From a virus, in UHGV virus genome UHGV-0219389: a stretch of 33,574 bases of DNA; one strand, 5' to 3'. Shown here piece by piece: positions 9,986-29,116 of the stretch. A program made the position numbers and the translations under genes. Every line of letters begins with the position of its first letter. Position 1 is the first letter of the stretch. The notes below the pieces were generated by a model. The model saw only the letters and a list, made by a program, of their open reading frames with translations, had not been told where the DNA came from and did not search any database.

Positions 9986-9987
9986 CG

Positions 9988-10269: not shown

Positions 10270-10275
10270 CATCAC

Positions 10276-10298
10276 AGGGGCTCCGGCCCCTTCTTCTT
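10276..10298 (+). terminator. intrinsic terminator-like hairpin (AGGGGC-tccg-GCCCCT + TTCTTCTT)
   Basis: GC stem with 4-nt loop followed by a T-rich run. Confidence 0.4.
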
Positions 10299-10366
10299 AA
10301 TCTCCTTTAATATCCGTCACGCGCTTCTCCCGACATACTGCCCTGAACTTACACAGGAGCACAATC

Positions 10367-10702
10367 ATGTCACAGACCCCATCCGATACTTTTAAATTGT
10401 CTTATCCCTTCACCACTGCTGCAGGTACCAGAATTGAGCTGGTTGAACTGAAACGCCTGACGGTAAAAGACCTGAAGCAGGTGCGCAAAATCAGCAAAAA
10501 CCCGGCAGACTGGGACGAACCGCTGATTGCCCGCAGTACTGGTCTTCTCCCGGAAGATCTCGACAATATGGATCTGGCTGATTACCTGCAGTTACAGAAA
10601 CGATTTCAGCTCATCACGGGGATGGGTGAGAGCAACCAGGGCGCTGACGCAGGCGCAGGGGCTGCTGGCGAGATGGTTCCGGTTTCAGCCGGGGGAGATT
10701 GA
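10367..10702 (+). CDS. tail assembly chaperone (E/G-like)
   Basis: 111-aa ORF between tube and tape measure; acidic Gly/Ala-rich C-terminus. Confidence 0.55.
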   Translation: MSQTPSDTFKLSYPFTTAAGTRIELVELKRLTVKDLKQVRKISKNPADWDEPLIARSTGLLPEDLDNMDLADYLQLQKRFQLITGMGESNQGADAGAGAAGEMVPVSAGGD

Positions 10703-10784
10703 TGCCCTCGATACTGACGATCTGGAGATGTGGCTGGAGCAGGCTGAAGAGCAAATAAAAAGCGAGTACGGCGACAAATCATAG
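10527..10784 (+). CDS. alternative-frame extension of the tail chaperone (E'/GT-like), reached by frameshift
   Basis: ORF overlapping the last 176 nt of the chaperone in the +1 (equivalently -2) frame and running 82 nt past its stop. Confidence 0.4.
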   Translation: MPAVLVFSRKISTIWIWLITCSYRNDFSSSRGWVRATRALTQAQGLLARWFRFQPGEIDALDTDDLEMWLEQAEEQIKSEYGDKS

Positions 10785-10859
10785 TACAGACAGCCGCCAG
10801 TAGCGGCTGTTCTGCGTTATTCCCTCACGTCTTTTCACCTTCCCCGGAGGTTAACCACT

Positions 10860-13811: not shown

Positions 13812-14695
13812 TGTTTGCCGTACTGGGTGATATTGAGTTTGAGCTGATTACCTACTGGGACGGCTTCGAGGCCACGTTCGGCGTCGATTATGCGGAGCAT
13901 GCCCGCATCGGGGGTAAGCCTGGCCTGCAGTTCGTCGGCGACAGGCTGGACGAAATCCAGATAAGTCTGGTCTTCCATCAGCATTATTGTGTACCCGATG
14001 TGGAGCTGGCGAGACTGCGAACAACCATGAAAGCCCATCAGGCACTGGCGCTGGTCTTCGGCAACGGTGACTATCGTGGCTGGTTCGTGATTACCGATGT
14101 GACCGCAACCAGCGAGCAGACAGACAGCACCGGTAACGTGCTGGCTGTCAGTGCCACCGTGTCTCTCCGGGAATACACCGGTGATCCGAAAAATCCTCTG
14201 CAACCACCGGCAATACGCACGAAGCTCCCGGGTGTCGGGGCGGTCTCCGGTGCCATTCCTTCGCCTTCCGGGGTGGCGCAGTTCATCCGCAACGGCGTCA
14301 ACTATGCGAAACAGGCGCAGTCTGTACTCCAGACCACTATCAGCGCCGTTCGGGTGACACAGAAAATGAAGGATAACCCCGTTGTCGCACTGACCCGTGT
14401 GCCGGGGCTGATGAGCGGACTGGGTAATATCTCCGGGGCTCTGGGGAAAAGTGTTCCGGCGTTTAACGCACTCTCTGAATCCATGCCCGATGCCATCAGT
14501 CTGGCCAGAACAGCCAGCGAAGCAGCCACGTATGTACAGCAGGCACAGTCTGCGCTGAGTGGTGTGGACAAAAGAAATATTGCAGGTGCTCTGGATACCG
14601 TTTCCGGGCAGCTTAACGCCGCCGGCACAGCATTCAACCGCATGTCTCCGGGATTAAGTGCAATGGCCGCCAGAATACTGACGAGGAGTGTGTGA
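13811..14695 (+). CDS. DNA circularization protein N-like (Mu gp43 position)
   Basis: 294-aa ORF overlapping the tape measure stop. Confidence 0.5.
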   Translation: MFAVLGDIEFELITYWDGFEATFGVDYAEHARIGGKPGLQFVGDRLDEIQISLVFHQHYCVPDVELARLRTTMKAHQALALVFGNGDYRGWFVITDVTATSEQTDSTGNVLAVSATVSLREYTGDPKNPLQPPAIRTKLPGVGAVSGAIPSPSGVAQFIRNGVNYAKQAQSVLQTTISAVRVTQKMKDNPVVALTRVPGLMSGLGNISGALGKSVPAFNALSESMPDAISLARTASEAATYVQQAQSALSGVDKRNIAGALDTVSGQLNAAGTAFNRMSPGLSAMAARILTRSV

Positions 14696-14907
14696 TGTTT
14701 CTTGAACATGTTACCCGTGACGGAGAGCGCTGGGATTCGCTGGCATGGCAGTACTACGGTGACCCGCTGGGCTATCCCCGGATTATTGCCGCCAATCCGC
14801 ACGTGGCCATCACGCCGGTGCTGCCCTCCGGGCTGTTGTTACTGATCCCGGTGATTGAGGCTGAAGAAGCCCGTACAGAAGAGGATATTGCCCCATGGCT
14901 GAGATAA
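14692..14907 (+). CDS. tail protein X-like (LysM-like)
   Basis: 71-aa ORF with motif pattern W..L..YYG..........I..ANP typical of phage tail protein X. Confidence 0.55.
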   Translation: MMFLEHVTRDGERWDSLAWQYYGDPLGYPRIIAANPHVAITPVLPSGLLLLIPVIEAEEARTEEDIAPWLR

Positions 14908-16049
14908 ACAGCACTGCGCAAGTCACATCAGCGTTAACCGGCGTCAGCGATGTGCTGACACCGGTGTTCACTCTGTGGTATCTGCAGAAAAACATCACCT
15001 CTGATATCGCGCCTTATGTCACCCGTGTGACCTGGAGCGATAACATCAAAAATGAGTCCGATACCATTGAGGTGGAGCTGGACGACACCGATGGCCGCTG
15101 GCTGGATAAGTGGTATCCGGGCAAGGGTGACACGCTGACGCTGAAAATGGGCTATCAGGGCGAGAAGCTGCTGTCCTGCGGTACGTTCTCTATAGACGAG
15201 ATCGAAGTGAGTTCGCCCGCTTCCGTTGTTTCTATCCGTGGGGTGGCCACCTCGGTTAACAGTGCCCTGCGGACTAAAACCAGTCGTGGTTTTGAGAACA
15301 CCACGCTGGCAGCTGTTGCGGGGCGGATTGCCAGAAAGCACCGGCTGAAACTGGTGGGCAGCATTGAGTCCATCAGAATCGACCGGGTGACCCAGTATGC
15401 TGAAACCGACGTGGGTTTTCTGCGCCGGCTGGCCAGCGAGTATGGTTATGCAGTGAAAGTGGTCAGTGACCAGCTGATTTTTTCTCATCTGGCCACACTG
15501 CGCAGTCAGGAGCCGGTCAGGCAGTTAAAACCGCAGGATGTGGCCCGCTTTTCCCTGCGTGACACCATCAACCGGGTCTATAAATCTGCAAAGGTAAAAC
15601 ACCAGAAAAGCAGCAGTAAAAAACTGATCGTCTACGAAGCTGATGGTGGTACCCGTGAAAGCGACAAAAAGCTCAAAGGTGGTAAGGTTACCAGCGCTGA
15701 CTCACTTAAAGTTAACAGCCGCGTCAGCGACCCGGACAGTGCCCGGATTAAAGCGGATTCAGCACTGGCCAGACATAACGAATACCAGCAGAACGGCTCC
15801 CTGACGCTGACGGGAACACCTCAACTGACAGCAGGCAACAAAATTGAACTGGTGGGTTTTGGGCAGTTATCCGGGCCATGGCTCATAACCACTGCCCGCC
15901 ATGCGTTTGACCGTAACAGCGGCTACACCACAGAGCTGGAAGTGGCACGGGGGCCAGTCACAAGAGGGAAAAAACAAAAAACTCAGAAACTCACGGTTTA
16001 TCACCCGGATGGCAGTACATCGACGGTGATTAAGGAGAAGAAAAAATGA
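14895..16049 (+). CDS. baseplate hub / late control D-like protein (Mu P-like)
   Basis: 384-aa ORF in the expected position; size matches. Confidence 0.7.
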   Translation: MAEINSTAQVTSALTGVSDVLTPVFTLWYLQKNITSDIAPYVTRVTWSDNIKNESDTIEVELDDTDGRWLDKWYPGKGDTLTLKMGYQGEKLLSCGTFSIDEIEVSSPASVVSIRGVATSVNSALRTKTSRGFENTTLAAVAGRIARKHRLKLVGSIESIRIDRVTQYAETDVGFLRRLASEYGYAVKVVSDQLIFSHLATLRSQEPVRQLKPQDVARFSLRDTINRVYKSAKVKHQKSSSKKLIVYEADGGTRESDKKLKGGKVTSADSLKVNSRVSDPDSARIKADSALARHNEYQQNGSLTLTGTPQLTAGNKIELVGFGQLSGPWLITTARHAFDRNSGYTTELEVARGPVTRGKKQKTQKLTVYHPDGSTSTVIKEKKK

Positions 16050-16642
16050 CTGGTGTCACTCGTCAGGTCGGTACGGTCAGTGCCGTTGATGCCGACAGGG
16101 TTCAGGCCCGCGTTCGTCTGCCTGAATGCGATAACCTGCGCACAAACTGGCTTAACGTGCTGCAGCGCAATACCCAGGATAACAAAGATTACTGGCTCCC
16201 TGACGTGGGGGAGCAGGTTGAGGTGCTGCTCGATGCCAACGGCGAGGATGGTGTTATTCTGGGCGCGGTGTATTCAGACGTCGATAAACCACCGTTCAGT
16301 GACAAAAATATCCGGGGAACCCGGTTTGCTGATGGTGCAGAGTACAGCTACAACCGGAAGACGCACACTCTGATCATCCGGGGCGGCATTGAGCATATTG
16401 TCATTGAGTGTGGTGCTGATGTGGTATTGAAAACACAGAAAGCCACGATTGACGCACCGGAAACCGAACTTACCGGAGATCTGCGTGTCAGGGGTAAGCT
16501 GATTTACGAAGGAGGCATGGCGGGTTCTGGTGGTGAAGGTGTTACCGCGACCATCCATGGCAATATCGAGATTAAAGGGAATGCCCATGCCACGGGCAGT
16601 ATGTTGTCTGATGGCGAAAACTCCAGCCACCACTCCCACTGA
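16046..16642 (+). CDS. baseplate spike protein (gpV-like)
   Basis: 198-aa ORF with Gly-rich C-terminus, overlapping the upstream stop. Confidence 0.7.
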   Translation: MTGVTRQVGTVSAVDADRVQARVRLPECDNLRTNWLNVLQRNTQDNKDYWLPDVGEQVEVLLDANGEDGVILGAVYSDVDKPPFSDKNIRGTRFADGAEYSYNRKTHTLIIRGGIEHIVIECGADVVLKTQKATIDAPETELTGDLRVRGKLIYEGGMAGSGGEGVTATIHGNIEIKGNAHATGSMLSDGENSSHHSH

Positions 16643-16678
16643 GCTTTTTAAACGCCTTTAATATCAGCGTTCCCGCAC

Positions 16679-16696
16679 GGGGGCAATACTGCCCCC
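16679..16696 (+). promoter_or_regulatory. GC-rich hairpin (GGGGGCA-atac-TGCCCCC) ending 1 nt before the gpW-like start codon
   Basis: Perfect 7-bp inverted repeat abutting the ATG at 16697. Confidence 0.4.
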
Positions 16697-17044
16697 ATGA
16701 AAACAACCTCAGTATTCTGGCAACCAGCCCTGCAGGCTCCCGGCGAAATTGTCCGGGGGCTGGATGATATCCGGCAGGCGATTCAAATTATCCTGCGGAC
16801 TCCCCGCGGCAGCGACCCGCATCGCCCGGAGTTCGGCAGCAATCTGCATCTTTATATCGACTGGCCTGTAGACCGGGCCATTCCGCATGTGGTGCGCGAA
16901 TCCGTCGATGCCATCCGGCGCTGGGAGCCCCGCTGCCAGCTTATGTCAGTTAAACCCGCCGTCGACGGCGAACATCTTACGCTCCGGGTGAGCTGGAAAG
17001 GCTCAGACGGACAGACCCGGACTCAGGAGCTGCTATGGCGCTGA
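16697..17044 (+). CDS. baseplate wedge protein (GPW/gp25-like)
   Basis: 115-aa ORF in conserved position. Confidence 0.7.
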   Translation: MKTTSVFWQPALQAPGEIVRGLDDIRQAIQIILRTPRGSDPHRPEFGSNLHLYIDWPVDRAIPHVVRESVDAIRRWEPRCQLMSVKPAVDGEHLTLRVSWKGSDGQTRTQELLWR

Positions 17045-18138
17045 CAGAACCCGATTTTATTGAACGCGATGCCGACAAAATCACGGCAGAAATGATTGCG
17101 AAGTATGAAGCGGATACCGGCAAAACGCTGTACCCGGCACAGGCAGAACGTCTGCTGATTGATCTGTGGGCCTATCGCGAAATGCTGGTCAGGGTTGCGG
17201 TACAGGAGGCGGCGAAGCAGAATCTGGTCGCCTTTGCCCGTGAGCCGATGATTGATTACCTCGGTGAACTGGTTGGTGTATACCGTCTTGCCGCGCAGCC
17301 TGCCACCACCACGCTCCAGTTCTCCGTAGATGAGGCACTGGCCATTGATGTGCTGATCCCGGCAGGCACCCGCGTCAGCGCTTCCGACAGCGTTATTTTT
17401 GCCACCGATACAGATGTGGTACTGAAGGCCGGATTGCTGCTGGTCAATGTCACGTCCACCTGTACCGAACCCGGTACCGCTGGTAACGGCTGGCAACCTG
17501 CGCAGGTCAGTCAGTTACTCGATGAGATTGATAACGTCGACCTGCTGGTGAGCAATCTGACGGCCAGTTCCGGCGGTTCAGAACAGGAAGACGATGACAG
17601 GCTCCGGGAGCGTATCAGGCTGGCCCCGGAGTCATTCACCAATGCCGGAAGCCGTGGCGCATACCGCTTTCATGCCATGCAGGCCCATCCCAACATTGTC
17701 GATGTTGCTGTGCTTTCCCCGGTTCCCGGGACCGTAGATCTGTATCCGCTGCTCAGTACCGGTCTGCCGGACGGCGGTGTTCTCACGCTGGTAGAGAGTT
17801 TCTGCTCTGATGAGAAAGTCAGGCCACTCACTGATACAGTGCGGGCTAAAACACCAGTGAAGGTGGATTACACCATTGAAGCCAGGATTACGATCTATCG
17901 TGATCAGGATGCCAGGTCTGTAAAAGATGCCGCTAACAGCGCCATACAGAACTGGGTGGCATCACGTGCCGCCACGCTGGGGCGTGATATTGTCCCCAGC
18001 CAGATTATCAGTGCATTGTCCGTTTCCGGGGTGTACCAGGTTGAACTGGTGACACCGGCACTGAGGGTGGTGGCAGAAAACGAATGGGCAAACTGTACGG
18101 CGATCACACTTAACATGAGTGGAGTGTCTGATGGCTGA
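17035..18138 (+). CDS. baseplate J-like protein
   Basis: 367-aa ORF overlapping the gpW-like stop. Confidence 0.75.
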   Translation: MALTEPDFIERDADKITAEMIAKYEADTGKTLYPAQAERLLIDLWAYREMLVRVAVQEAAKQNLVAFAREPMIDYLGELVGVYRLAAQPATTTLQFSVDEALAIDVLIPAGTRVSASDSVIFATDTDVVLKAGLLLVNVTSTCTEPGTAGNGWQPAQVSQLLDEIDNVDLLVSNLTASSGGSEQEDDDRLRERIRLAPESFTNAGSRGAYRFHAMQAHPNIVDVAVLSPVPGTVDLYPLLSTGLPDGGVLTLVESFCSDEKVRPLTDTVRAKTPVKVDYTIEARITIYRDQDARSVKDAANSAIQNWVASRAATLGRDIVPSQIISALSVSGVYQVELVTPALRVVAENEWANCTAITLNMSGVSDG

Positions 18139-18709
18139 GCCATTACAACTCCCGCCACCGCTTGAGGGTGATACCAGTCTCAGGACGCTGGGAAGACTGG
18201 CAGGGCGGCTGGATAACATCGACCTGAGCGTACTGATGGTCTTTCTCGTCGATATCGTCGACAGTTCTGCGCTGCCATGGCTGTGCGAGCAGTTCTCACT
18301 GTCTGGCGATGGCTGGGAGCTGGCGGAATCGGACGATGTTCGCCGCATGCTTATAAAAGCAGCCATCGAACTGCACCGGTATAAAGGGACGCCGTGGTCA
18401 ATCCGGGAAGTTATCCGCCGTTTTGGCTTTGGTGAAGTGGATCTGATTGAAGGCACAGGTCGTCTCAGTTACGACGGCAATCGCAGCTATAACGGACTGT
18501 TTGTTCATGGAGATGCAGCCGCCTGGGCGGTTTATTGCGTTATTCTGAAACAGCCCATTACTAACGATCAGGCCGCGATGCTGCGTCAGACGCTCGCTGC
18601 ATTTGCACCGGCCCGCTGCCATCTGGCCAGCCTGGAGTATCAGTCTGTGGCCATTCGCTATAACAATACCGCCATCCATGATGGCAGTTATAACCACGGG
18701 AGCAGTTGA
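18131..18709 (+). CDS. tail protein (P2 gpI / Mu gp48-like)
   Basis: ATG at 18131 in frame with track ORF 18119..18709. Confidence 0.6.
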   Translation: MAEPLQLPPPLEGDTSLRTLGRLAGRLDNIDLSVLMVFLVDIVDSSALPWLCEQFSLSGDGWELAESDDVRRMLIKAAIELHRYKGTPWSIREVIRRFGFGEVDLIEGTGRLSYDGNRSYNGLFVHGDAAAWAVYCVILKQPITNDQAAMLRQTLAAFAPARCHLASLEYQSVAIRYNNTAIHDGSYNHGSS

Positions 18710-18711
18710 TT

Positions 18712-19875
18712 ATGGGAAACCTGAATGAAACAGAAAAGTGGGAAGAAAATATCTATCAACTGGAGACATCAGATCCGGTTCTGGGTGGTGCTGACGGGAT
18801 ATCAAATCGAGCCCCCCGGCAACTGGCAAACAGGACGAAATGGCTGAAGAAAAAAACGGAGGAAGCCGCACAGTCACTGGCTGAACACGTACGTTCCCGT
18901 AACCACCCGGACGCGACACTGACAGCTAAGGGGTTCACCCAACTGAGCAGTGCCACCAACAGCACCTCTGAAACGCTGGCCGCCACACCAAAAGCCGTCA
19001 AGGCTGCATACGACCTTGCAGCCGGCAAGGCGCCCGTCAGCCACACTCACCCGTGGAGTCAGATAACGGGAGTGCCTGCTGCCTCGCTGACGGCAAAAGG
19101 CACCGTACAACTGAGCAGCGCCATCAACAGCACGTCTGAAACGCTGGCCGCCACACCGAAAGCGGTCAAGGCTGCATACGATCTGGCAAACGGAAAACAA
19201 CCGGCAGATGCCACGCTCACTGCTCTGGCAGGACTTGCCACTGCAGCAGATCGGTTGCCTTATTTTACCGGAGCAGACCGCGCAGCGCTGGCAACCCTTA
19301 CAGCTATTGGTCGCGCTATTATCGCTAAGGGCAGTATAAAAGATGTCCTCAATTACCTTGGTTTGGGGGAAGGCTCTGCATTGCCTGTTGGTGTACCGGT
19401 TCCGTGGCCCACCGCCACACCGCCAGCAGGCTGGTTAAAGTGCGACGGGCGCGCCTTTACAAAAGAACAATATCCTGTTCTGGCCAGAGTCTACCCGACC
19501 CTCCGTCTTCCCGATTTACGCGGTGAGTTTATCCGTGGATGGGACGACGGGCGCAAAGTTGATACAGGACGTAAGTTGCTGTCCGCACAAGGGGCAACGC
19601 TGTTAAGAACAGCAATGCTGGATTATTATAACCAGGACACTACGGGAACCTCGGGGATAGTCGGCATGGGATTCAACAATGAAGATTCCATTACAGACCT
19701 TCGTGAGGGCAGCTTTAAAATGCCGGACGGGACAACATTCAGCGATCCTGTCATGGCAATGTCAGACAATGGTATGCAGGCTACTATTCTGACCTCTATC
19801 AGAAGCGGGTATGCGAAGGGTATCACTGTCAGACCCCGTAGCATTGCACTTAATTACATTGTGAGGGCAGTTTAA
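18712..19875 (+). CDS. tail fiber protein (constant N-part plus invertible C-terminal variant Sv)
   Basis: ATG at 18712; internal repeats TAKG(F/T)xQLSSA(T/I)NSTSETLAATPKAVKAAYDLA; C-terminal part from about 19360 lies in the invertible segment. Confidence 0.8.
   Translation: MGNLNETEKWEENIYQLETSDPVLGGADGISNRAPRQLANRTKWLKKKTEEAAQSLAEHVRSRNHPDATLTAKGFTQLSSATNSTSETLAATPKAVKAAYDLAAGKAPVSHTHPWSQITGVPAASLTAKGTVQLSSAINSTSETLAATPKAVKAAYDLANGKQPADATLTALAGLATAADRLPYFTGADRAALATLTAIGRAIIAKGSIKDVLNYLGLGEGSALPVGVPVPWPTATPPAGWLKCDGRAFTKEQYPVLARVYPTLRLPDLRGEFIRGWDDGRKVDTGRKLLSAQGATLLRTAMLDYYNQDTTGTSGIVGMGFNNEDSITDLREGSFKMPDGTTFSDPVMAMSDNGMQATILTSIRSGYAKGITVRPRSIALNYIVRAV
18921..19200. repeat. intragenic tail-fiber repeat, 2 copies about 168 bp apart
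   Basis: Duplicated 30-aa motif in the fiber shaft. Confidence 0.7.
19346..19371. other. gix-like crossover site, left (tcctcaattacc-TT-GGTTTGGGGGAA)
   Basis: 26-bp site with inner half-site matching the Hin/Gin/Cin half-site pattern GGTTTnnnnnAA; central TT. Confidence 0.55.
19358..19437. repeat. 80-bp perfect inverted repeat, left copy
   Basis: Reverse complement identical to 20883..20962; encodes the shared peptide GLGEGSALPVGVPVPWPTATPPAGWL. Confidence 0.9.
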
Positions 19876-20489
19876 TGAGTAACACTGCAGTTCTGGATGA
19901 AAACGGTATCGCCACTGTAGCGGGCGATATCACTGTATATCACTATGACGAGGAAACCCGGGAATACACCTCATCCTCTGTGGAGTATCTCGCCCTTGGG
20001 GTGGGTACTCCGGCACATTCGTGCGCCGATGCACCGCCGGAGGCAATTTCGGGTTACGTGGTTTGCCGGACTGCCACGCTGAACGGGTGGGAGCATGTGC
20101 CTGATCACCGCGGCGAGACGGTATACAGCACGGAGAACGGTAACCCCGTTCTGATTACCCAACCGGGTGATTACCCGGCGGACACCACCACAAAACAGCC
20201 TGCCACACCATGGGATACCTGGAACGGTGAAGCGTGGGTAACTGATACTGAACGGCATAGAGCCGCAGAGCTGGAGACTGCCAGACTGCAACGCCAGAAA
20301 CGGGTGGATCAGGCGATGAAGTCCATCGACCTCATCAACCTCAAACTGCGGGCAGGTCGCAGTCTGAAACCAGAAGAAACGGCAAAACTGAACGCCGTGC
20401 TGGATTATATCGACGAGCTGAACGCACTGGATATCAGCAAGGCACCTGAAATCAGCTGGCCGGAAGCGCCACTGGCGCTTGCCGGCTGA
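19875..20489 (+). CDS. tail fiber assembly protein (Tfa/U-like)
   Basis: 204-aa ORF, start overlapping the fiber stop. Confidence 0.75.
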   Translation: MSNTAVLDENGIATVAGDITVYHYDEETREYTSSSVEYLALGVGTPAHSCADAPPEAISGYVVCRTATLNGWEHVPDHRGETVYSTENGNPVLITQPGDYPADTTTKQPATPWDTWNGEAWVTDTERHRAAELETARLQRQKRVDQAMKSIDLINLKLRAGRSLKPEETAKLNAVLDYIDELNALDISKAPEISWPEAPLALAG

Positions 20490-20495
20490 ACGGTA

Positions 20496-20962
20496 TCACG
20501 CCGCCCTCACGATATAGTTAAATGCGATATTGCGGGGGCGAGCTGATACATAAGCCCACCAGTCATATCTTTGTGCACCTTTAGAGGATGCATCAAATAT
20601 CCACTTTTTGCCATTTATGACCCCCAGTTGATTAGAGGTTAAAGCGTCACCAAATCCGTATTGTGTAGAGCCGAGCGAACTGATATCTCCGGTATCATTA
20701 TCATCAAAACCGGATACGATAGTCCCTTCCTGAAATGAAAGTAGCGCACGCCCGGTATCAACCTTGCGACCACCGTCCCATCCACGGATAAACTCACCGC
20801 GCAAATCGGGAAGACGGAGGGTCGGGTAGACTCTGGCCAGAACAGGATATTGTTCTTTGGTGAACGTAGCTCCGTTGCACTGTAACCAGCCTGCTGGCGG
20901 TGTGGCGGTGGGCCACGGAACCGGTACACCAACAGGCAATGCAGAGCCTTCCCCCAAACCAA
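20496..20962 (-). CDS. alternative tail fiber C-terminal segment (Sv'), promoterless
   Basis: Minus-strand frame whose N-terminal 26 aa equal residues of the + strand fiber at the inverted repeat, then diverges; both variants end ...NYIVRA. Confidence 0.7.
20883..20962. repeat. 80-bp perfect inverted repeat, right copy
   Basis: Reverse complement identical to 19358..19437. Confidence 0.9.
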
Positions 20963-20974
20963 CGTTTATCTCTC
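20949..20974. other. gix-like crossover site, right (TTCCCCCAAACC-AA-cgtttatctctc)
   Basis: Inner half-site TTCCCCCAAACC matches the invertase half-site pattern; central AA is the reverse complement of the left-site TT. Confidence 0.55.
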
Positions 20975-21029
20975 AAATCCTCCCCACATTATCTCAGTAC
21001 TTTAACCACTCAAAAGGGAGTATTTTTAA

Positions 21030-21601
21030 TGCTGATTGGCTACATACGTGTGTCAACAAATGACCAAAACACAGATTTGCAACGCAAAGCATTAATGTGC
21101 GCAGGATGTGAACAGATTTTTGAGGACAAAATGAGCGGAACCAAGTCGGAACGTCCAGGCCTGAAACGCGCTTTAAAGTGCCTTAAAAGAGGGGATACAT
21201 TGGTGGTCTGGAAGCTGGATCGGTTGGGTAGAAGAATGAAACACCTCATTGCTCTCACAGAAGAGCTACGCGCAAAAGGTGTCAATTTTCGCAGTCTGAC
21301 GGATTCAATCGATACCAGCACTCCGATGGGAAGGTTCTTTTTTCATATGATGGGTGCACTGGCAGAAATGGAGCGTGAACTGATAGTTGAGCGCACGCTG
21401 GCAGGACTGGCTGCTGCGCGAGCACAAGGGAGAGTTGGAGGACGTCGCCCGAAACTGACGAAGGAGCAGCATGAGCAGATCGCAAGATTGCTCCAGAAAG
21501 GGTATGACAGAAAGCGGCTGGCAATTATCTATGATATTGGACTGTCAACGATCTACCGCTACCACCCTGTTGGGACTGTCATAACGCAACCTGAAATGTA
21601 A
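21030..21601 (+). CDS. gin: DNA invertase (Gin/Pin/Cin/Hin family serine recombinase)
   Basis: N-terminal MLIGYIRVSTNDQNTDLQ catalytic-serine motif and C-terminal HTH; start at ATG 21030 inside track ORF 20900..21601. Confidence 0.85.
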
Positions 21602-21679
21602 TTCTTTTTCAAATAATGAAACGCCGCGTGGATGCCATTTATCGCACAAGATAGAGTGCATTTATCGCGCGGCGCATCA
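21602..21679. repeat. putative Mu-type right end with repeated transposase-binding-like motifs
   Basis: Direct repeats CATTTATCGC at 21636 and 21659, GAAACGCC motif at 21618, sequence ending ...GCGCGGCGCATCA; resembles the Mu right end from memory. Confidence 0.45.
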
Positions 21680-21741
21680 TACAGCCCTTTAGCCTCCAGT
21701 TCTTCCGCTTTGCTGTCTTTAATCATGCTGTACCTCACTGC

Positions 21742-22167
21742 TTAAAACGGTATTCCGTCCCCGTACGGATCATCGTGCTGGCCTGTCTGTTGTTTTGCCC
21801 TGTTCAGTGCGTCAGTAGCCTGGCCCTGCTGGCCTTTTTTGCCGCCCGGTCGCGCCGTTCGCGCACTGATTACGCTGTCTGCGATGACCTGCCAGCCCTG
21901 CCGCGTTTCGCCGTTCTGGCCTGTCCACTGGCTTACCTGCATGTTACCCGCCACGCTCACCAGTTCGCCTTTCTGGTGTTTTGCCAGTGCGTCGGCCTGT
22001 CTGCCAAACGCCAGGACGGATAACCACATCGTCGCCGTTCCGTCATCTGCCTGGCTGCATGGCAGGGGAACCGCCATACTCGCCATCGCCATTTGTGTTC
22101 CCTTGCTGGTGGTCTTTAACTGCGGGTCAGCCACCAGCCGCCCGTAAGCCGCTATCTGTGCTGTCAT
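21742..22167 (-). CDS. SSB-like single-stranded DNA-binding protein
   Basis: 141 aa with Gly/Gln-rich linker and C-terminal acidic tail ending DGIPF, as in SSB (DDDIPF). Confidence 0.55.
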   Translation of the reverse strand: MTAQIAAYGRLVADPQLKTTSKGTQMAMASMAVPLPCSQADDGTATMWLSVLAFGRQADALAKHQKGELVSVAGNMQVSQWTGQNGETRQGWQVIADSVISARTARPGGKKGQQGQATDALNRAKQQTGQHDDPYGDGIPF

Positions 22168-22227
22168 GCTGTCTGTTCTCCGGTTTTAACGTTGATTGTT
22201 ACGCTTGTTTACACCCTTATGGTGAAA

Positions 22228-22376
22228 TTCTGCGGGTTATAATCGCACTTTTGCGGGTTATAACTGCCGTTTTGCGGGTTATTTTGGGTATTTTACGGGT
22301 TACGATTTTCCTGCCATTCCTTTAATAATCATATGGATACTGATTTATCCACAGAAATAACCCGCATAACCCGCAA
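22228..22376. repeat. iteron array (candidate replication origin)
   Basis: Four direct copies of (T)TTTGCGGGTTAT spaced exactly 21 bp (22231, 22252, 22273, 22294), an AT-rich spacer, then two inverted copies ATAACCCGCA (22357, 22366). Confidence 0.7.
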
Positions 22377-22403
22377 AATTTTCACCCTACACGCGAGAAA
22401 AAA

Positions 22404-24530
22404 TTAATCTTCTTCGCTTTCTGGCTGGAACATCAGCACGTAAAAAACATGCTGCTTCCCCCCAATTTTGCCGAGCGCCTTTTTCTTGTAACGGCGATCG
22501 TTACCCGCTTCCAGCATTCCGGCAGCACTCAACGCGCGGGCAAAGTGAGACGGATTAAATCCCTGTGCTATCTCACCCTCAAATACATGCGGGAACGTGT
22601 AAAAACGGAACTCGTCATCTTCGTTTCTGATACTCCCCTTTCTGTATCCGGCAAGCTCTTTAATCGGTAAATCACGCTCGTCAGAGTTGGGCCAGGGAAG
22701 GTATCTGCTGAATCCGAACGACGCTAAAAAAGCCTCTGCCTGTTCAACCATCTGTTTAAACTCCCTGTTACCCGTGCCGAACTCCTTCACCCAGGCATTA
22801 AAATTATGCTGTATGGCATCGCGGCATTCCTGCTCATCCCAGCCAGTAACATGACCTGAAAGCACAAGCGCGGCCTCCAGTATGGCAAATCGCTCCCCCA
22901 CACGGTGAACCTGTTCGCCGTAGCTCTCCGGTATCAGGTTGCGCCACCGCTCACGGCATGTCCTTACCGTGTCCTTTGCCTCCTGCTGGTGTTCTGCCAG
23001 CCATTTAACCCACTCACGACCCGCCGCCCCGTGATTTGCTGTCCAGGCATCCTTTAACGCGTCTGCGTGCGCCTTTCCGGTGCTGTATTCGTGAAATTGC
23101 GTGGCTTTTTCCATCGGAACGTTAAGCAGGCGGACAAGCTGCCCCGCTTTGACTTTTATCCCCTCCGTTTTGAGGAATGTCTCAACGTCCATTTCTCCGG
23201 TGCTGATTGCCACCGTTCGCCAGTGTTTTATCTCCCTGTTGCCGCCGTCCTTTGCCCCCTGTAATTTCCCGGAACCGTTAAACAGCGTATAGGCTGACGT
23301 GGACACCTCCCGCGCGTTTCCGGCCTGGCCTATTTCATCCAGGGGTAAAAGCCCGTCATTGTGTGCCTCTGCTTCGTTGGCGATACCTAACGCTGTGCCG
23401 TACCAGGTCAGCCGCTGCGCGTCCGGCTCTCCCCATAAACTTGATGCGATGTTCTGCGTTGTGGTCTTACCTGCCGATGACTGTTCGAAAAGATGTACCC
23501 CGAAGCCGTCAGCGCCCACCAGCCCGATTAATGGTGCGGATAACGATACCGCCACCCCCAGCATCATGGACGGATTACCACCAGCCAGTCGCGCCACGGT
23601 GTCGCGCCAGCCCTCCGCCGTTCCTGCCACGGAATAGCCATTAACAGCAGCAGTTTTTCCGGTAAACAGGACTGGCTTTTCGCAATCACCAATGACCGAA
23701 CCGTCCGGCATGATGTACGCGCCAAAATGCCAGCCCGTTGTTGTGCTTAACTGCCATTCCTCATGGCTTCCGCTTAACTGCATCCAGTCAGCCAGGATTG
23801 CCCTGTATTTACCGTTGGTTGTTACGTTCAGTCCGTGGTCTTTCAGCAGCCGCCAGCCGTCACGGTCGCCAATGCCACCGCACGGAACCGCCATTGTGAT
23901 GACTTCATGATTTGCTGGCTTTTTCCAGCGCATCACGCGGTAATGTTCTTTGCCGATTGTCCCCGTTCCCAGCAGTTCAAGCGGGGAACATAACCACGTC
24001 TCAGGCCGGATAATTTCGCCTGACTGCTTGTCCACTTTTGGCGTAACCCAGAAAACACCATCGGCGCGGCTTTCAACGCGGGGCTTTAATTCATCATCAC
24101 CCGGGCTTTCTGTGATTTTTTTCTTTAAGGGCAACACCAGACTTTCCCCGCGCTCGTATTCGTCTTTGAGGCGAGGCAACTGGTCGGATAAATCCGCCGG
24201 GCTGGTGTCAGTTATCCCCGCGTATTCGTATACGGTCTTCACGCCAGCCACAGCCAGCAACGTGACGATCTGTGTAAGGCTACGTTCAGTGATGTGCCCT
24301 GCGCGGTAAATACGCACACACTGACGGCTATCATCAATAATTTGATAACCGGTAATATCTTTCAGGTGTTCATCTGACAGAACGACAGGCGGCACATTGT
24401 CGGCGGCAATATGCTTACCTGCCCATTCCTGCCACTCTTTCGCATGGCTCCACGCATCACTACCCGCAAAGATGATAACCTCCGTCATTTTGTCGGCTGG
24501 CTGGTGCTTTAAGTTTGGTGCGCGCTTCAT
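22404..24530 (-). CDS. primase-helicase-like replication protein (P-loop NTPase)
   Basis: 708 aa with P-loop-like FEQSSAGKTT; placed beside the iterons as replication initiators are in P4-like and PICI-like elements. Confidence 0.55.
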   Translation of the reverse strand: MKRAPNLKHQPADKMTEVIIFAGSDAWSHAKEWQEWAGKHIAADNVPPVVLSDEHLKDITGYQIIDDSRQCVRIYRAGHITERSLTQIVTLLAVAGVKTVYEYAGITDTSPADLSDQLPRLKDEYERGESLVLPLKKKITESPGDDELKPRVESRADGVFWVTPKVDKQSGEIIRPETWLCSPLELLGTGTIGKEHYRVMRWKKPANHEVITMAVPCGGIGDRDGWRLLKDHGLNVTTNGKYRAILADWMQLSGSHEEWQLSTTTGWHFGAYIMPDGSVIGDCEKPVLFTGKTAAVNGYSVAGTAEGWRDTVARLAGGNPSMMLGVAVSLSAPLIGLVGADGFGVHLFEQSSAGKTTTQNIASSLWGEPDAQRLTWYGTALGIANEAEAHNDGLLPLDEIGQAGNAREVSTSAYTLFNGSGKLQGAKDGGNREIKHWRTVAISTGEMDVETFLKTEGIKVKAGQLVRLLNVPMEKATQFHEYSTGKAHADALKDAWTANHGAAGREWVKWLAEHQQEAKDTVRTCRERWRNLIPESYGEQVHRVGERFAILEAALVLSGHVTGWDEQECRDAIQHNFNAWVKEFGTGNREFKQMVEQAEAFLASFGFSRYLPWPNSDERDLPIKELAGYRKGSIRNEDDEFRFYTFPHVFEGEIAQGFNPSHFARALSAAGMLEAGNDRRYKKKALGKIGGKQHVFYVLMFQPESEED

Positions 24531-24841
24531 TTTGCCTTTCTCCGTTCACGAATAATTTCACGTACTGCCTTAATGCGTTCCATACCTGTAACGCGCATGA
24601 TTCTGTCGATGTCGCTTAAGTTCGCTGGTGGTGCTTTGCTTACCAGGGTGAATTCACTCTCAAAACGCATATGTGACGACACGCAGGGATGCGCATAACC
24701 TTCGCGGATATAGGTCACGCGAAAATCATCGACGGTTTTAATCGTTATCGTGCTGCCGTATTTATCCTGGAAAATATCGCCGGGGCGGATTTCAGGCCGA
24801 GCGGAGCCGCTGGCAGTAAAGCCAGAATTTTTCTTTTTCAT
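24527..24841 (-). CDS. hypothetical protein, coupled to the primase gene
   Basis: 104-aa ORF overlapping the primase start by 4 bp. Confidence 0.45.
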   Translation of the reverse strand: MKKKNSGFTASGSARPEIRPGDIFQDKYGSTITIKTVDDFRVTYIREGYAHPCVSSHMRFESEFTLVSKAPPANLSDIDRIMRVTGMERIKAVREIIRERRKAK

Positions 24842-24847
24842 GTTTTT

Positions 24848-25066
24848 TTACTCCAGAGGCCGCTTTTTAGCGAAGAGTTCAATATCAGATGTCAGAGAAA
24901 CCTGTGTATTTGCCAGGTCTAACAACAAAGAAATAAGAATTTCCTCTCTGCTATCTGATTTATCGGTGCTAAGGCTGTTCATCCACATATTGACGACTTC
25001 CCTGATTTTTTTCGCAGAGTGCATGGCTTCAAATGCCAGGTCTTCAATATCATGTTTATTTCGCAT
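24848..25066 (-). CDS. hypothetical small protein
   Basis: Internal ATG of track ORF 24848..25132, chosen to limit overlap with the upstream gene. Confidence 0.35.
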   Translation of the reverse strand: MRNKHDIEDLAFEAMHSAKKIREVVNMWMNSLSTDKSDSREEILISLLLDLANTQVSLTSDIELFAKKRPLE

Positions 25067-25268
25067 AATCGCCCCCGCGTAACTGGTCTGCACTAACACC
25101 CGATTTAGTGAGCATTTCAGAAAATCCCGCAAGAGTGCTGATAAATTCGTTTTCCATTAAACGGCACTGGCATTTAACCCGGCCTTTTTCCAGATACACC
25201 AGTACGCACCCCGTATAATCTGACGGCACATTCAGCACTACAGATAAGTGCGCTTCATTATTATTCAT
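25056..25268 (-). CDS. hypothetical small protein
   Basis: 70-aa ORF in the same operon. Confidence 0.35.
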   Translation of the reverse strand: MNNNEAHLSVVLNVPSDYTGCVLVYLEKGRVKCQCRLMENEFISTLAGFSEMLTKSGVSADQLRGGDYAK

Positions 25269-25497
25269 GGCTCACCACCTCCATATCAGCCATGATAATT
25301 TTGCTGGCCTCATTCAGTGCCATATCAGCACTAAGTTGCATTACAGCCAGTGAATGAGGAACGAAAGCCCCGGCATATTCTGTTTCGCTGGTGGCGTGCT
25401 TATGCGCCTTGTCTGCGATAACAGAAATATCAATCAGCGCGTGCATCAGCGTTTTGATGGCTTCGGCGGCTGCGTCCGGACGGGTGTTATTGCACAT
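25261..25497 (-). CDS. hypothetical small protein
   Basis: 78-aa ORF overlapping its neighbours at both ends. Confidence 0.35.
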   Translation of the reverse strand: MCNNTRPDAAAEAIKTLMHALIDISVIADKAHKHATSETEYAGAFVPHSLAVMQLSADMALNEASKIIMADMEVVSHE

Positions 25498-25693
25498 GGA
25501 GCACCCCCTGACGAATACGGGCGGCGAATACCATCACGCAGCCAGCCGGGGATTGCTGGCGTGCTTCCTGTTCGCTGGTGGCCACGATGTGAATCACGCG
25601 CGGTTGTGCGGTGCTCAGGGCGATAAAACGCCAGATGTATTTATTCAGGTTGTGCGAGTCCCGCCCTTGCGGGTGTGTGGTATGATTTCTCAT
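25487..25693 (-). CDS. hypothetical small protein, first gene of the leftward operon
   Basis: 68-aa ORF from ATG 25693 with GAGG RBS; this is the C-terminal part of the 301-aa track ORF, whose upstream part crosses operator palindromes. Confidence 0.4.
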   Translation of the reverse strand: MRNHTTHPQGRDSHNLNKYIWRFIALSTAQPRVIHIVATSEQEARQQSPAGCVMVFAARIRQGVLHVQ

Positions 25694-25770
25694 AGCTACC
25701 TCGATACTCTTGCTATCGTTGGTGGTTAGACGCCCTGCATGTGTTGCGAGCACTGCGGGGCGTTGCTTAA

Positions 25771-25826
25771 TTTGAGTGACAAAACTCAAACTGTGCGCAC
25801 AGATTAAAATCATGTGTGCGCACATG
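25771..25826. promoter_or_regulatory. divergent promoter/operator region with palindromes
   Basis: TTTGAGT-N6-ACTCAAA at 25771-25790; perfect palindrome TGTGCGCACA at 25792-25801 and again at 25815-25824; half-site TGTGCGC near 25862. Confidence 0.6.
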
Positions 25827-25898
25827 TCAATACTTAACATCTCATTTTTTTTGCTGTATTGTGTGCGCCCATAAAGTCCATTTAAGTGAGGTGCATCA

Positions 25899-26096
25899 AT
25901 GTCTAGCGGTAACACAAACAACAAATCAGCAAAGAAAAATATTCGATTCCCACATGAGCTTATAGATGGGATTGATGCCAGCGTTGAACAAGAAAAATTA
26001 ACTAATCCTAGTGCTAATTTTTCCGCATGGGTCTTAGATGCCTGTGGACGCAAATTAAAATATGAACAGCGCCGGAAGGCCAAAGAATCAGAATAA
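25899..26096 (+). CDS. ribbon-helix-helix (Arc/Mnt-like) putative repressor
   Basis: 65 aa; segment KNIRFPHELIDGIDASVEQEKLTNPSANFSAWVLDAC has the beta-strand/helix/helix pattern of Arc (RWPREVLDLVRKVAEENGRSVNSEIYQRV, from memory). Confidence 0.5.
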   Translation: MSSGNTNNKSAKKNIRFPHELIDGIDASVEQEKLTNPSANFSAWVLDACGRKLKYEQRRKAKESE

Positions 26097-26138
26097 TCAC
26101 TATCAGCGCCGTGGTGTGAGTAACTACGGCGCATTGCT

Positions 26139-26327
26139 ATGCAGGACAACACAATGACCGATAAAGAATTGACCAAAACATTATCACCGACACGGAAAAG
26201 ACGGCGCAGAAAGATAGAGCATGAATCAGAAAGATTCGCACCTTGTTCGTTTGCTCTTGAGAAATTCCTTAAAGAGCGCAGGAAAAAGCTCTCGTTGCAA
26301 ACCTTGGAACGAACCAAATCTGACTGA
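26139..26327 (+). CDS. hypothetical basic protein
   Basis: 62-aa Lys/Arg-rich ORF downstream of the RHH gene; weak RBS. Confidence 0.25.
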   Translation: MQDNTMTDKELTKTLSPTRKRRRRKIEHESERFAPCSFALEKFLKERRKKLSLQTLERTKSD

Positions 26328-26460
26328 TCACATTGCCCACCAGCCGCAAATGTGGCATTGTTGGTGATGCTTTTGTTTTCCCTTGTTCCCACTGGCTACC
26401 CTTTTGCGGTCGCCTTTGTTTTGCCTGTTATCCGGCAATAGTGGCGCTTCGTCACCTGTC

Positions 26461-26549
26461 TGATATAATTCCACTGCTTATATTCATTTTTTGCGCAGTA
26501 GGTTAATTGTTCGCAAGGGCGCTCCGGCAACGGGGCGCTTTTTGTTTTT
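26461..26549 (+). ncRNA. candidate small RNA (extended -10 promoter to intrinsic terminator, about 70 nt)
   Basis: TGaTATAAT at 26461-26469; stem-loop TTGCG..CGCAA; terminator GCGCTCCG-GCAA-CGGGGCGC + TTTTTGTTTTT at 26519-26549; no ORF with RBS between. Confidence 0.35.
26519..26549 (+). terminator. intrinsic terminator (8-bp stem, GCAA tetraloop, U-tract)
   Basis: GCGCTCCG / CGGGGCGC stem with one G-U pair, followed by TTTTTGTTTTT. Confidence 0.6.
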
Positions 26550-26707
26550 ACCCACCAGCACAATAAAAATCTTCATTTTCCATTTTTGTAAAATTTCATG
26601 CTTTCCGGACGACTGGTCATATGTCATTTTTTAGCAGAAGATTTTGCCTTGCTGGTGGGTAGCTTCCCGGTCAACACGATGTACCGTATAATCAACACCG
26701 CGTGTGG

Positions 26708-27292
26708 TTACTGAATACGCTCACCAAAGTAAAACTCAGGCTGGTATTCACGTATCAGCCTTTTTTCTTCTTCCTCCAGCTCACGCTTTTTGCGCTTACA
26801 TGCCTGTAGCTCCCTCCCCTTCTCGCTGGCACTTATCTGATATTGCTCTTTGCGGCGGGAAAAATCCTGTAATGCGCCCCACGGGATACCATAAGCCCCC
26901 GTTTTTCTGATACCCGGTATCACATTTCTGAATACCCAGTTACTGAAACGATGGGCGAACGTGCCAGGAGTAGCAGCTTTGCGACTTCTGGCAATCAGCT
27001 TGTAAAAGCCAGATTCAGAAACGACGCTATGATTTGGATTTCCGCGAATACCGTAAGTTAAAGTTACGGTATTACTTTCATCATCATCCAGAGCTTGCAA
27101 CGCCATGCGTGAATTGGATAATTCAAGCGCCGCACAAACATCCTTTGCAACAAACCACGGATCGCCGTTCAGATACACCACACGAACATCCACGCCATCA
27201 AAACGTAGAACGACCTGATCACGAATATCGCAGAATTTTTTCACTGGACGTGCATTCCCCTTGCCCATCATGGCAATATTTTTATTCATCAC
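26708..27292 (-). CDS. Bro-N domain antirepressor-like protein
   Basis: N-terminal motif DGDPWFVAKDVCAALEL characteristic of Bro-N; 194 aa; GAGG RBS. Confidence 0.65.
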   Translation of the reverse strand: MMNKNIAMMGKGNARPVKKFCDIRDQVVLRFDGVDVRVVYLNGDPWFVAKDVCAALELSNSRMALQALDDDESNTVTLTYGIRGNPNHSVVSESGFYKLIARSRKAATPGTFAHRFSNWVFRNVIPGIRKTGAYGIPWGALQDFSRRKEQYQISASEKGRELQACKRKKRELEEEEKRLIREYQPEFYFGERIQ

Positions 27293-27308
27293 TTTCTACC
27301 TCACATAC

Positions 27309-27336
27309 AAAAAACCCCGCATTGCGTGGTGCGGGG
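27309..27336 (-). terminator. intrinsic terminator after the AlpA-like gene
   Basis: Minus-strand stem CCCCGCA / TGCGGGG followed by TTTTTT. Confidence 0.55.
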
Positions 27337-27346
27337 TTGTCGGTAA

Positions 27347-27625
27347 TTACTTATTGGCGTTTTTGTATGGGCTGTTTACTTCCTTTACTCCTGGCGGATG
27401 CATAACCCACCAGAGCACATCAGAGAGCAACCAGGAAACAGACACTTTCCCTAAATGAGCACGAGCAGGAAATGCTCCCTCCTGTTCAAGTACCCAACGT
27501 CTGCTTCTTGAAAGCCCGGTACGATTGGCACACTCATGTTCGCGTATACGGCGATCATACGGTTCGCCATGCTCTTTCAGAATCTGAATGCGTTCTTCGG
27601 GTGTAGGATAAATAAATTTTTGCAT
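27347..27625 (-). CDS. AlpA-family HTH regulator
   Basis: Start at internal ATG 27625 (MQKF...) with AGGTGA RBS; TGLSRS..W HTH pattern. Confidence 0.55.
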   Translation of the reverse strand: MQKFIYPTPEERIQILKEHGEPYDRRIREHECANRTGLSRSRRWVLEQEGAFPARAHLGKVSVSWLLSDVLWWVMHPPGVKEVNSPYKNANK

Positions 27626-27637
27626 AAAAATATCACC

Positions 27638-27665
27638 TATAAAAAAACCCGCCAAAAGACGGGTT
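27638..27665 (-). terminator. intrinsic terminator-like hairpin between the two AlpA-like genes
   Basis: Minus-strand stem AACCCG / CGGGTT followed by a 7-nt U-run. Confidence 0.45.
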
Positions 27666-27688
27666 GATTATATCTCATTTAATTTAGC

Positions 27689-27910
27689 TCAGGGTTTCCA
27701 TTCACCCTTTACCCATTCCAGCACCTCAGATAAGCGCCAGACTTTTGTTTGTGGGCCAATACATATTTTTCGTGGAAATTTTCCTTCCTTTTCAAGTAAC
27801 GATCTGTGTCTCCTGCCAAGAGCGGTTAACCATGCACATTCATCTTCCTTAATCATCCTGTCGATTGTTTTATCATTTTCAAGTTCTTCACGCGTAACTA
27901 TTTGAATCAT
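27689..27910 (-). CDS. excisionase/AlpA-like HTH protein
   Basis: Small ORF overlapping the integrase 3' end; AlpA-like pattern (ECAWLTALGRRHRSLLEKEGKFP). Confidence 0.5.
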   Translation of the reverse strand: MIQIVTREELENDKTIDRMIKEDECAWLTALGRRHRSLLEKEGKFPRKICIGPQTKVWRLSEVLEWVKGEWKP

Positions 27911-29111
27911 TACCGTCACCACTAATTAGCTTATTCAGATAGTCATACCACCAATTCATAGCTTCTTTTTTTCTGTCCATATACTGGCTTCTGTTATAAA
28001 CCCCGGCAACACCGCCTAATGTGTGCCCAAGCAACTGTTCAACCACATTATGTTCAAAACCATGATCACTTAGCTTTGTGGCAAACACTCTTCGCATATC
28101 ATGCGCCGTCCATTTCTCCGAGTGTTTCATCCTTTTCCATGTCTTACCGATAGTTACGCTTGCCGTACACTGACGCATATCAAACCCAATCACATTTTCT
28201 TTGTTACCTGTTATTTTTTTTAACGTAACTAACCAGTTAAACATGCCATCAGGAATCGGTCTGATTATTTCCCTGCCATTTTTGCTATGATCAGCGGGAA
28301 CGCGCCATAATTTCTTATCAAAATCCCACTCTCCCCAGGAGGACAGTAATACTTCTGACAGTCGACAACCAAAAACTACCAGGAAACGTAAAATAATTCG
28401 GTTTTCATATGATAATTCGTGATTGTCATAATCAGTATTAATACTTCGCCATAAATCTCTGATTTCATCATCTGTTAAAACCCTGCTTCTTCGCGCAGAC
28501 TTTTTTCCCACATCACAGACCTCAAGATCATCAATTTCATGACTAATCGCGTATTTTCTTACCCGACAAAATTTAAGCGCCTGTTTTGATATACGCAACA
28601 AAGCTCCGGCCTGTACAGGTGCTACTTTTTTTATTTTGTCAAAACACTTGATCCACATAGATATAGAGCAATCACTAAGTGGTACATGACCAATCACCGG
28701 ATAAATATGTTTACCAAAGCACTGCCTGATATGTTCTGCTCCCCTACGCTTATCCATTGCATAATTATCAAGCCAGTATTCAAGTGCCTCACGAACGGTA
28801 ACAGGTTGCAAGGTGGCTTCCCGTTCAATTTTTATCTGAATCCGTGGATCTCTGCCCTCCGCAAGCCAGGTTCGACACTGATCGCGCATCTCTCTCGCTG
28901 ATTTGAGACTCAGATCAGGATATTTCCCAAGTGTCAGCCAGATGGGCGCGGTTCCCCTTCCCGCCAGTCTGTAAAAGAAAACAAAACTAACACATCCGTA
29001 TTTACTGACCCGTACCGAAAGCCCGTTACCATCAGCGATGGTTTCCTGCCTCTCACTCCTGCGCCCAAGCAGGGAACGAAGTTTTTTATCGCTCAGTTTG
29101 TTTAGCGCCAT
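27888..29111 (-). CDS. int: tyrosine integrase (P4-type)
   Basis: N-terminal MALNKLSDKK...GNGLSVRVSKYG resembles P4-family integrase; C-terminal HDMRR...LLGH...Y catalytic region; start taken at ATG 29111. Confidence 0.85.
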   Translation of the reverse strand: MALNKLSDKKLRSLLGRRSERQETIADGNGLSVRVSKYGCVSFVFFYRLAGRGTAPIWLTLGKYPDLSLKSAREMRDQCRTWLAEGRDPRIQIKIEREATLQPVTVREALEYWLDNYAMDKRRGAEHIRQCFGKHIYPVIGHVPLSDCSISMWIKCFDKIKKVAPVQAGALLRISKQALKFCRVRKYAISHEIDDLEVCDVGKKSARRSRVLTDDEIRDLWRSINTDYDNHELSYENRIILRFLVVFGCRLSEVLLSSWGEWDFDKKLWRVPADHSKNGREIIRPIPDGMFNWLVTLKKITGNKENVIGFDMRQCTASVTIGKTWKRMKHSEKWTAHDMRRVFATKLSDHGFEHNVVEQLLGHTLGGVAGVYNRSQYMDRKKEAMNWWYDYLNKLISGDGNDSNSYA

Positions 29112-29116
29112 GTGAT

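Follow-up and report, generated by a model that had tools for sequence, protein, structure and literature searches.

Where does the phage sequence in UHGV-0219389 stop, to what kind of element does it belong, and what does it adjoin? The stretch of DNA analysed here (the window) comprises 33,574 nucleotides of this virus genome, and the question arises at positions 21602 to 21741, where a phage invertase gene gives way to a short minus-strand reading frame. The sequence-only reading had proposed a Mu-type transposon end that cuts a gene. The reading preferred here, to which we assign a probability of about 0.93, is that 21602–21679 is the right end of a BcepMu/B3-type transposable prophage, inserted by DDE transposition at codon 16/17 of a perC-family gene of a capsid-forming PICI satellite.

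The breakpoint at 21679/21680

The right end (attR, 21602..21679, plus strand) is non-coding and extends from the invertase stop codon to a terminal CA. The stop codon ends at 21601, so that it is separated from the tip at 21679 by 78 bp, the distance that had been noticed beforehand. The terminal sequence at 21679 is GCGCGGCGCATCA, and a further motif, GAAACGCC, lies at 21618–21625.

When a 901-bp query across the site was used in megablast searches, no one partner spanned the whole of it, and the partner genomes changed exactly at 21679/21680, from those that match the phage side to those that match the target side. Among the 5426 complete E. coli genomes, all of the top matches begin at query base 381 (window 21680) and take in the SSB gene together with one that carries the annotation ‘PerC family transcriptional regulator’. 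Matches in the phage collection stop at query base 380 or 381 (window 21679 or 21680). This switch of partners places the end of the element at the A of 21679 and makes the gene to its right a perC homologue that is cut after codon 16.

One and the same end abuts eight unrelated sequences: perC in the window, a site next to aroA in PV468777 (L002) and six genes in complete genomes. The identical end sequence meets unrelated DNA in L002–L006, L018 and L020, PV468777 for example reading ...GCGCGGCGCATCA and then continuing into unrelated DNA that adjoins aroA. These eight flanks, together with the intact state of the target gene elsewhere, support the earlier suggestion of a random transpositional insertion into a gene.

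A junction formed by site-specific integration through a serine recombinase, or by illegitimate recombination or deletion, is highly improbable; in that case 21679 would not be a transposon tip. Such an origin is suggested by the serine recombinase gene 78 bp from the junction and by the presence of only one junction of the insertion in the window. However, the same terminal nucleotide is joined to all eight unrelated sequences, no att-like sequence is common to the targets, and in six cases the flanks rebuild one gene with 6 bp duplicated, the hallmark of transposition. The recombinase, moreover, is a 190-aa Gin-type invertase, and a fibre segment seen in both orientations explains its role.

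Full-length relatives and the target duplication

The right-hand 21.7 kb of the BcepMu-type transposable prophage occupies 1..21679 (plus strand) of the window, as judged from its identity to a prophage of E. coli AF3 and from its BcepMu gene order. Terminase and portal genes are followed by head genes, a P2-like tail and baseplate, tail fibres and the invertase, and the P2 GpU, GpD, X, V, W, J and I families are present. Over 19.2 kb this part shows 99.2% identity with the 37,491-bp prophage in dgcQ of AF3 (L003), while three other copies fetched whole are about 38 kb long; from these relatives it is predicted that the left ~16 kb, including the transposase gene, lie outside the window. The last 1.8 kb before 21679 are 98–100% identical to prophages in 298 of the 5426 complete E. 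coli genomes (~5%).

Six full-length copies were analysed, all in complete genomes, and each splits another gene (dgcQ, emrA, kefF, yeiB, a ptsP-type PTS gene and flgJ). At the left they have an inverted end that matches the right one, they encode a DDE transposase with an AAA+ partner, and all six have TGAT...ATCA termini. All six are also flanked by a 6-bp direct duplication (ACTGGT, ATGCGT, TCCTGT, ATAAAG, GCTGGC and ACAGGC), and the yeiB copy excludes a 5-bp reading. The target duplication of Mu is 5 bp, and the 5-bp duplication that the sequence-only reading had forecast is thus contradicted by the relatives. The uninterrupted target of the window's insertion reads CTCTCCGG-TACAGC-CCTTTAG; by analogy with the six relatives, TACAGC at 21680..21685 (plus strand) is predicted to be the right copy of a 6-bp duplication.

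The terminal CA dinucleotide (21678..21679, plus strand) corresponds to the end of the TGAT...ATCA termini of the six relatives, and is where 3'-end cleavage and strand transfer would take place. BcepMu-related prophages whose transposase has an rve core are characterised by TG...CA termini (PMC2628397).

Transposition genes and the class of the phage

In the full-length relatives, which are 99–100% identical to the phage part of the window, there are genes for a 589-aa rve DDE transposase, whose rve domain scores above the gathering threshold in Pfam (E = 9.7e-9), and an AAA_22 ATPase, also recognised by Pfam. Identity to this transposase is 99% for that of Escherichia phage PhiKM (PQ738613), 68% for BcepMu gp09 (over 98% of the protein) and 56% for the B3 transposase A; a comparison with solved structures gave one marginal match only (E = 0.005). 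The early operon is directed leftward and encodes Mor, gp16, Gam, the AAA+ protein and the rve transposase; it is followed by lysis, Mu-like head and P2-like tail genes. This gene order, taken from L003–L006, is that of BcepMu, with the early operon inverted relative to Mu. B3-like phages likewise have an inverted early operon and transposition proteins that differ from those of Mu (PMC5977238).

Resemblance to Mu is nevertheless real, and a true Mu/D108-type end (Muvirus), with MuA/MuB and a 5-bp duplication, has to be weighed. The terminal CA fits such an end, as do 17 of 22 matching positions in a comparison with Mu R1 (see below) and a Gin-like invertase, 76% identical to Mu Gin, that adjoins an invertible fibre segment. 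Remote homology of the transposition proteins is also detectable: MuA, BcepMu gp09 and the relatives' transposase all match PHROG 310, and MuB and the AAA+ partner both match PHROG 296. Pairwise similarity, on the other hand, was not found, the best BLASTP results of the relatives' transposase and ATPase against MuA and MuB being E = 0.48 and E = 2.4. In Pfam the transposase matches rve and none of the Mu-specific transposase domains, and among its 69 tblastn hits in 50,697 phage records BcepMu, B3 and their relatives are present whereas Mu and D108 are absent. Neither com nor mom was found, and the invertase directly precedes the phage end; with the inverted early operon and the 6-bp duplication in six of six relatives, this leaves a Mu/D108 origin extremely improbable, and at the level of family membership it is already refuted. 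Of the earlier proposal of a Mu right end, the Mu-like transposable end therefore stands and the identity with Mu/D108 does not: as judged from sequence comparison, the phage is of the BcepMu/B3 type.

BcepMu (Bcepmuvirus) has in common with the E. coli phage its gene order, TG...CA termini and, in each end, a pair of G[A/C]GATAWWT sites at nucleotides 12 and 35. The two differ at the right end, where BcepMu has an acyltransferase gene and the E. coli phage a Gin-type invertase and invertible fibre segment, and their DNA is unrelated apart from the conserved end motifs. With B3 (Beetrevirus) the likeness lies in the transposase, the inverted early operon and end motifs in the same register; however, the B3 transposase is more distant than that of BcepMu (56% against 68%), and B3 is a Pseudomonas phage of another genus. 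Mu and D108 resemble the E. coli phage in DDE transposition at near-random sites, as it appears to occur here, in TG...CA ends with repeated end sites, in a MuB-type AAA+ partner, in the Gin invertase with its flip-flop fibre segment, and in the PHROG families and R1 matches already given. They differ from it in the transposition proteins, where Pfam rve replaces the Mu-specific domains and pairwise similarity to MuA/MuB is lacking, and in the length of the duplication (5 bp, against 6 bp in the E. coli relatives). Mu also carries c-ner-A-B at its left end, transcribed rightward, and com/mom before its right end, an arrangement that the E. coli phage does not have.

The phage type is already known, since public E. 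coli genomes contain many near-identical prophages and one such prophage is on deposit as a named phage. A literature search on PhiKM and BcepMu-like E. coli prophages returned phiKMV papers only.

Conserved sites at the phage end

The direct repeats, the additional motif and the terminal CA that had first drawn attention to this end are all present. The repeat CATTTATCGC occurs exactly twice in the 33.6-kb window, at 21636–21645 and 21659–21668, 23 bp apart from start to start. The same 500 bp hold other chance repeats of 9 nt, and a 10-nt repeat by itself is unremarkable. The present one is lifted above chance by the exact change of similarity partner at 21679/21680. What argues for a role as binding sites is that matching motifs are found at both ends of the E. 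coli phage, of BcepMu and of B3. The repeat motif of the two putative sites is GCGATAAAT. Putative site R1 (21657..21668, minus strand) reads GCGATAAATGCA and occupies nucleotides 12–23 from the tip, and putative site R2 (21634..21645, minus strand), 23 bp from R1, reads GCGATAAATGGC and occupies nucleotides 35–46. From the tip inwards, the right end of the window is TGATGCGCCGC GCGATAAATGCA CTCTATCTTGT GCGATAAATGGC and the left end of the AF3 copy is TGATCAGACAT GAGATAAATGAA GGGGGATCCGT GAGATAAATAAC. TGAT and, at nucleotides 12 and 35, G[A/C]GATAAAT are common to the left end and the reverse complement of the right end, and G[A/C]GA[A/T]A[A/T][A/T] is found at the same two positions at both ends of BcepMu and B3. 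(The phiE255 record is not trimmed to the phage ends and was left out of this comparison.) The two repeats are thus conserved paired end sites and likely binding sites for the transposase, a role suggested by their conserved position.

The likeness to the Mu right end that had been proposed is borne out in the sequence: over the terminal 22 nt, TGATGCGCCGCGCGATAAATGC and Mu R1 TGAAGCGGCGCACGAAAAACGC match at 17 of 22 positions, as counted by hand. A candidate third site, GCGTTTCAT, lies at about nucleotide 56 from the tip, includes GAAACGC and fits 6 of the 9 consensus positions of the sites. It might be a weak third site to which the GAAACGCC motif belongs, but nothing corresponds to it at this distance from the left tip. 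There is also a 13-nt inverted repeat, 21616–21628 and 21668–21680, which may be due to chance.

The interrupted perC gene

On the other side of the breakpoint, a minus-strand ATG at 21726 lies 15 bp past the stop codon of the SSB gene and has GAGG 7 nt upstream. The native 5' remainder of the perC-family gene (21680..21726, minus strand) comprises 47 nt, or 15.7 codons, encoding MIKDSKAEELEAKGLY; the good ribosome-binding site and the approximately 16 native codons described earlier are thereby confirmed. The residues MIKDSKAEELEAKGLY are identical to the N-terminus of intact PerC proteins of 93–98 aa, and the fragment matches PHROG 994 at residues 1–16 only. The open reading frame that continues across the breakpoint (21559..21726, minus strand) is a chimera of 55 aa, made up of 16 perC codons and 39 codons that come from the phage end and from the 3' part of the invertase gene; no function is expected of it.

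In E. coli CEA106S and strain 361, the 93-aa PerC gene runs uninterrupted across the site, reading CTCTCCGGTACAGCCCTTTAG. CEA106S has ...GCTGCTCTCCGG-TACAGCCCTTTAGCC... through the 93-aa gene, and a different sequence to the left of the breakpoint. The intact PerC protein matches PF06069 with E = 2.6e-35 (121 bits) over profile positions 1–89 of 90. The sequence-only reading would have been challenged by a gene at 21726 that continues intact in related genomes with this same sequence. The gene is indeed intact there, but the left-hand sequence differs, and the insertion reading stands.

The satellite and the prophage around it

The DNA to the right of the breakpoint (21680..29200, minus strand) is most probably the integrase-proximal half of a capsid-forming satellite of the PICI type (cf-PICI), to judge from its gene content and from the gene order of strain 361. 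Its genes in the window are int (27903–29111), an alpA-type HTH gene, Bro-N, DUF4222, DUF927, SSB and the start of perC. The replication module (21742..24530, minus strand) consists of the SSB gene, at 21742–22167, and a DUF927 primase-type gene at 22404–24530; both are identified by Pfam and stand in the same order as in strain 361. The gene that had earlier been called SSB-like is accordingly a Pfam SSB.

Between the SSB and DUF927 genes, at ~22230–22390, there are iteron-like TTGCGGGTTA repeats, two direct copies and one inverted; degenerate copies of TTGCGGGTTA are also visible by eye over the same interval. The repeats probably mark the satellite replication origin. In a lower-G+C accessory region of the satellite there is a 301-aa reading frame with a GTG start (25487–26392, minus strand); it gave no Pfam or PADLOC match, and was called as a gene in one metagenome contig and not in the other.

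An uninterrupted homologous island of ~15 kb is present in strain 361 (L010 9236–26319). Its first part carries int, two alpA-type HTH genes, Bro-N, an Icd-like gene, DUF4222, the DUF927 primase, SSB and perC, and perC is followed by genes for the major capsid protein, protease, portal, connector, HNH, TerS and TerL. This layout fits the description of cf-PICIs, of which EcCIEDL933 is the prototype (bioRxiv 10.1101/2022.09.08.507074). The island in the window differs from these in being interrupted in perC and in showing the int-to-perC half only; by comparison with strain 361, the genes for capsid and packaging are expected on the far side of the phage, past its left end. The right boundary of the satellite falls somewhere within 29112–29281. 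An att core was not found, a comparison of the boundaries in strain 361 having given an 11-nt shared string that was unconvincing.

On either side of the island is one half of the terL gene of a lambdoid prophage. This arrangement is seen in the window, in strain 361 and in at least 21 complete E. coli genomes. In the window, a reading frame at 29117–30310 contains the 5' fragment of terL (29282–30310), which matches only positions 2–68 of the 286-position nuclease-domain profile. The window is therefore a set of three nested elements, a lambdoid prophage that contains a probable cf-PICI that contains a BcepMu-type phage. The recurrence of the island in terL in at least 21 complete genomes makes terL a possible regular attachment site for satellites; that there is a satellite lineage which regularly uses prophage terL in this way, and which disables prophage packaging while it is resident, we consider rather unlikely. 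Satellites resident in terL were not found described in the cf-PICI preprint (bioRxiv 10.1101/2022.09.08.507074). The phage insertion might make a 50-kb composite too big for the small capsids of the satellite, which would be a natural knockout of a satellite by a phage. The lambdoid prophage also carries, adjoining its lysis genes, a gene for a lipoprotein of the Bor/Iss family (31768–32109, plus strand; Lambda_Bor, E = 5.7e-30), which is annotated as iss in strain 361.

The invertase and the tail fibres

The last gene before the phage end encodes the serine invertase (Gin-like; 21029..21601, plus strand), with Pfam Resolvase and HTH_7 domains. The invertible tail-fibre segment occupies 19355..20965 and has a core of approximately 19573–20747, which holds a fibre-assembly gene and an alternative fibre C-terminus. 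On either side of the core, at 19355–19572 and 20748–20965, is an inverted repeat of ~216 bp, the two copies being 92% identical. The segment has the opposite orientation in a second locus, L007, that has the same junction, which shows that the Gin-like invertase has been active since the insertion. The tail-fibre gene encodes 389 aa in the window (18706–19875) and 611 aa in AF3 (L003 38915–40750), the difference in length being one in copy number of a 168-bp (56-aa) tandem repeat.

Reality of the junction and the search for its left counterpart

A rival reading is that the junction is a chimera formed in metagenome assembly from a prophage contig and a satellite contig. The junction is absent from the 5426 complete E. 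coli genomes and the viral contig collection, and from the representative genomes of 185,579 bacterial and archaeal species (one per species), and the contigs that bear it break off within the prophage, the window and the longest junction contig both doing so ~21.6 kb into it. These points favour a chimera. Yet gene callers recognised the chimeric 55-aa frame on three metagenome contigs, which come from at least two independent ENA samples (one is from human gut), and the break falls exactly at the terminal CA of the phage, as that of a random chimera would not. The 20-kb locus of L007 is 99.75–99.94% identical to the window and has the fibre segment in the opposite orientation, from which it follows that the two are independent assemblies of the same insertion. 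Three contigs, at least two samples and one inverted fibre segment together argue that the junction is not an assembly artefact, and a chimera is very unlikely. The junction is instead read as that of a BcepMu/B3-type prophage with perC, and the copy of the prophage in the window could be truncated.

The left junction predicted for this insertion is ...CTCTCCGGTACAGC joined directly to TGATCAGAC..., and the expected tip of the left end is TGATCAGACATGAGATAAATG. Exact-pattern scans of viral, genome and metagenome contigs found no such junction, and a homology search with the predicted left-junction chimera gave intact PerC clusters only. When seven predicted truncated or chimeric proteins were looked up exactly, one was found, a 67-aa protein with an internal Met start on a single JGI contig; pattern scans of the JGI data argue against this protein as a sign of the left junction.

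If the left junction is as predicted, an in-frame ATG (ATG TCT GAT CAG, on the basis of L003 5064–5090) would be provided by the left end of the phage and joined to the 77 codons of perC that remain. An N-terminally altered PerC (MSDQLYRR...) could thus be made from the other side of the insertion; it is absent from a collection of 15 billion sequences.

A model for the insertion

Since there is no pairwise similarity to MuA/MuB, the details taken from Mu in what follows are analogy. As in Mu and BcepMu, the rve-type DDE transposase would bind two sites at each end, here R1 and R2, 23 bp apart. It would then pair the ends, R1/R2 with L1/L2, and expose a 3' OH at the terminal CA (21679). An AAA+ partner resembling MuB would pick and present the target, to which both ends would be joined with a 6-bp stagger, and repair of the stagger would produce the 6-bp duplication, predicted to be TACAGC. 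The insertion would leave perC with 16 native codons followed by 39 phage-derived codons, and would split the satellite replication module from the capsid and packaging module by a prophage that measures ~37–38 kb in the relatives.

Consequences for annotation

The phage end is an unremarkable example of a type already known, and its value lies mainly in correct annotation. The exact right boundary is set for a prophage that is widespread in E. coli, its end region being present in ~5% of complete genomes. The reading frame at 21559–21726 is an artefact of insertion and not a gene, and the island to the right of 21679 is a satellite with an inactivated perC. The three-level nesting illustrates how transposable phages can disable other mobile elements, as an anecdote that brings no new principle.

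For the phage lineage as a whole, 6-bp duplications and two conserved sites per end are features that may be useful for the automatic delimitation of prophages. Prediction tools often misplace the ends of such prophages, as in PV468777, which runs into aroA and serC. This record (PV468777.1, ‘Escherichia phage Entero_P88_NC_026014(23)’) is a predicted prophage deposited as a ‘complete phage genome’; it spans the chromosomal genes ycaO, serC and aroA and clips the last ~1.7 kb of a BcepMu-type prophage, so that its boundaries are wrong.
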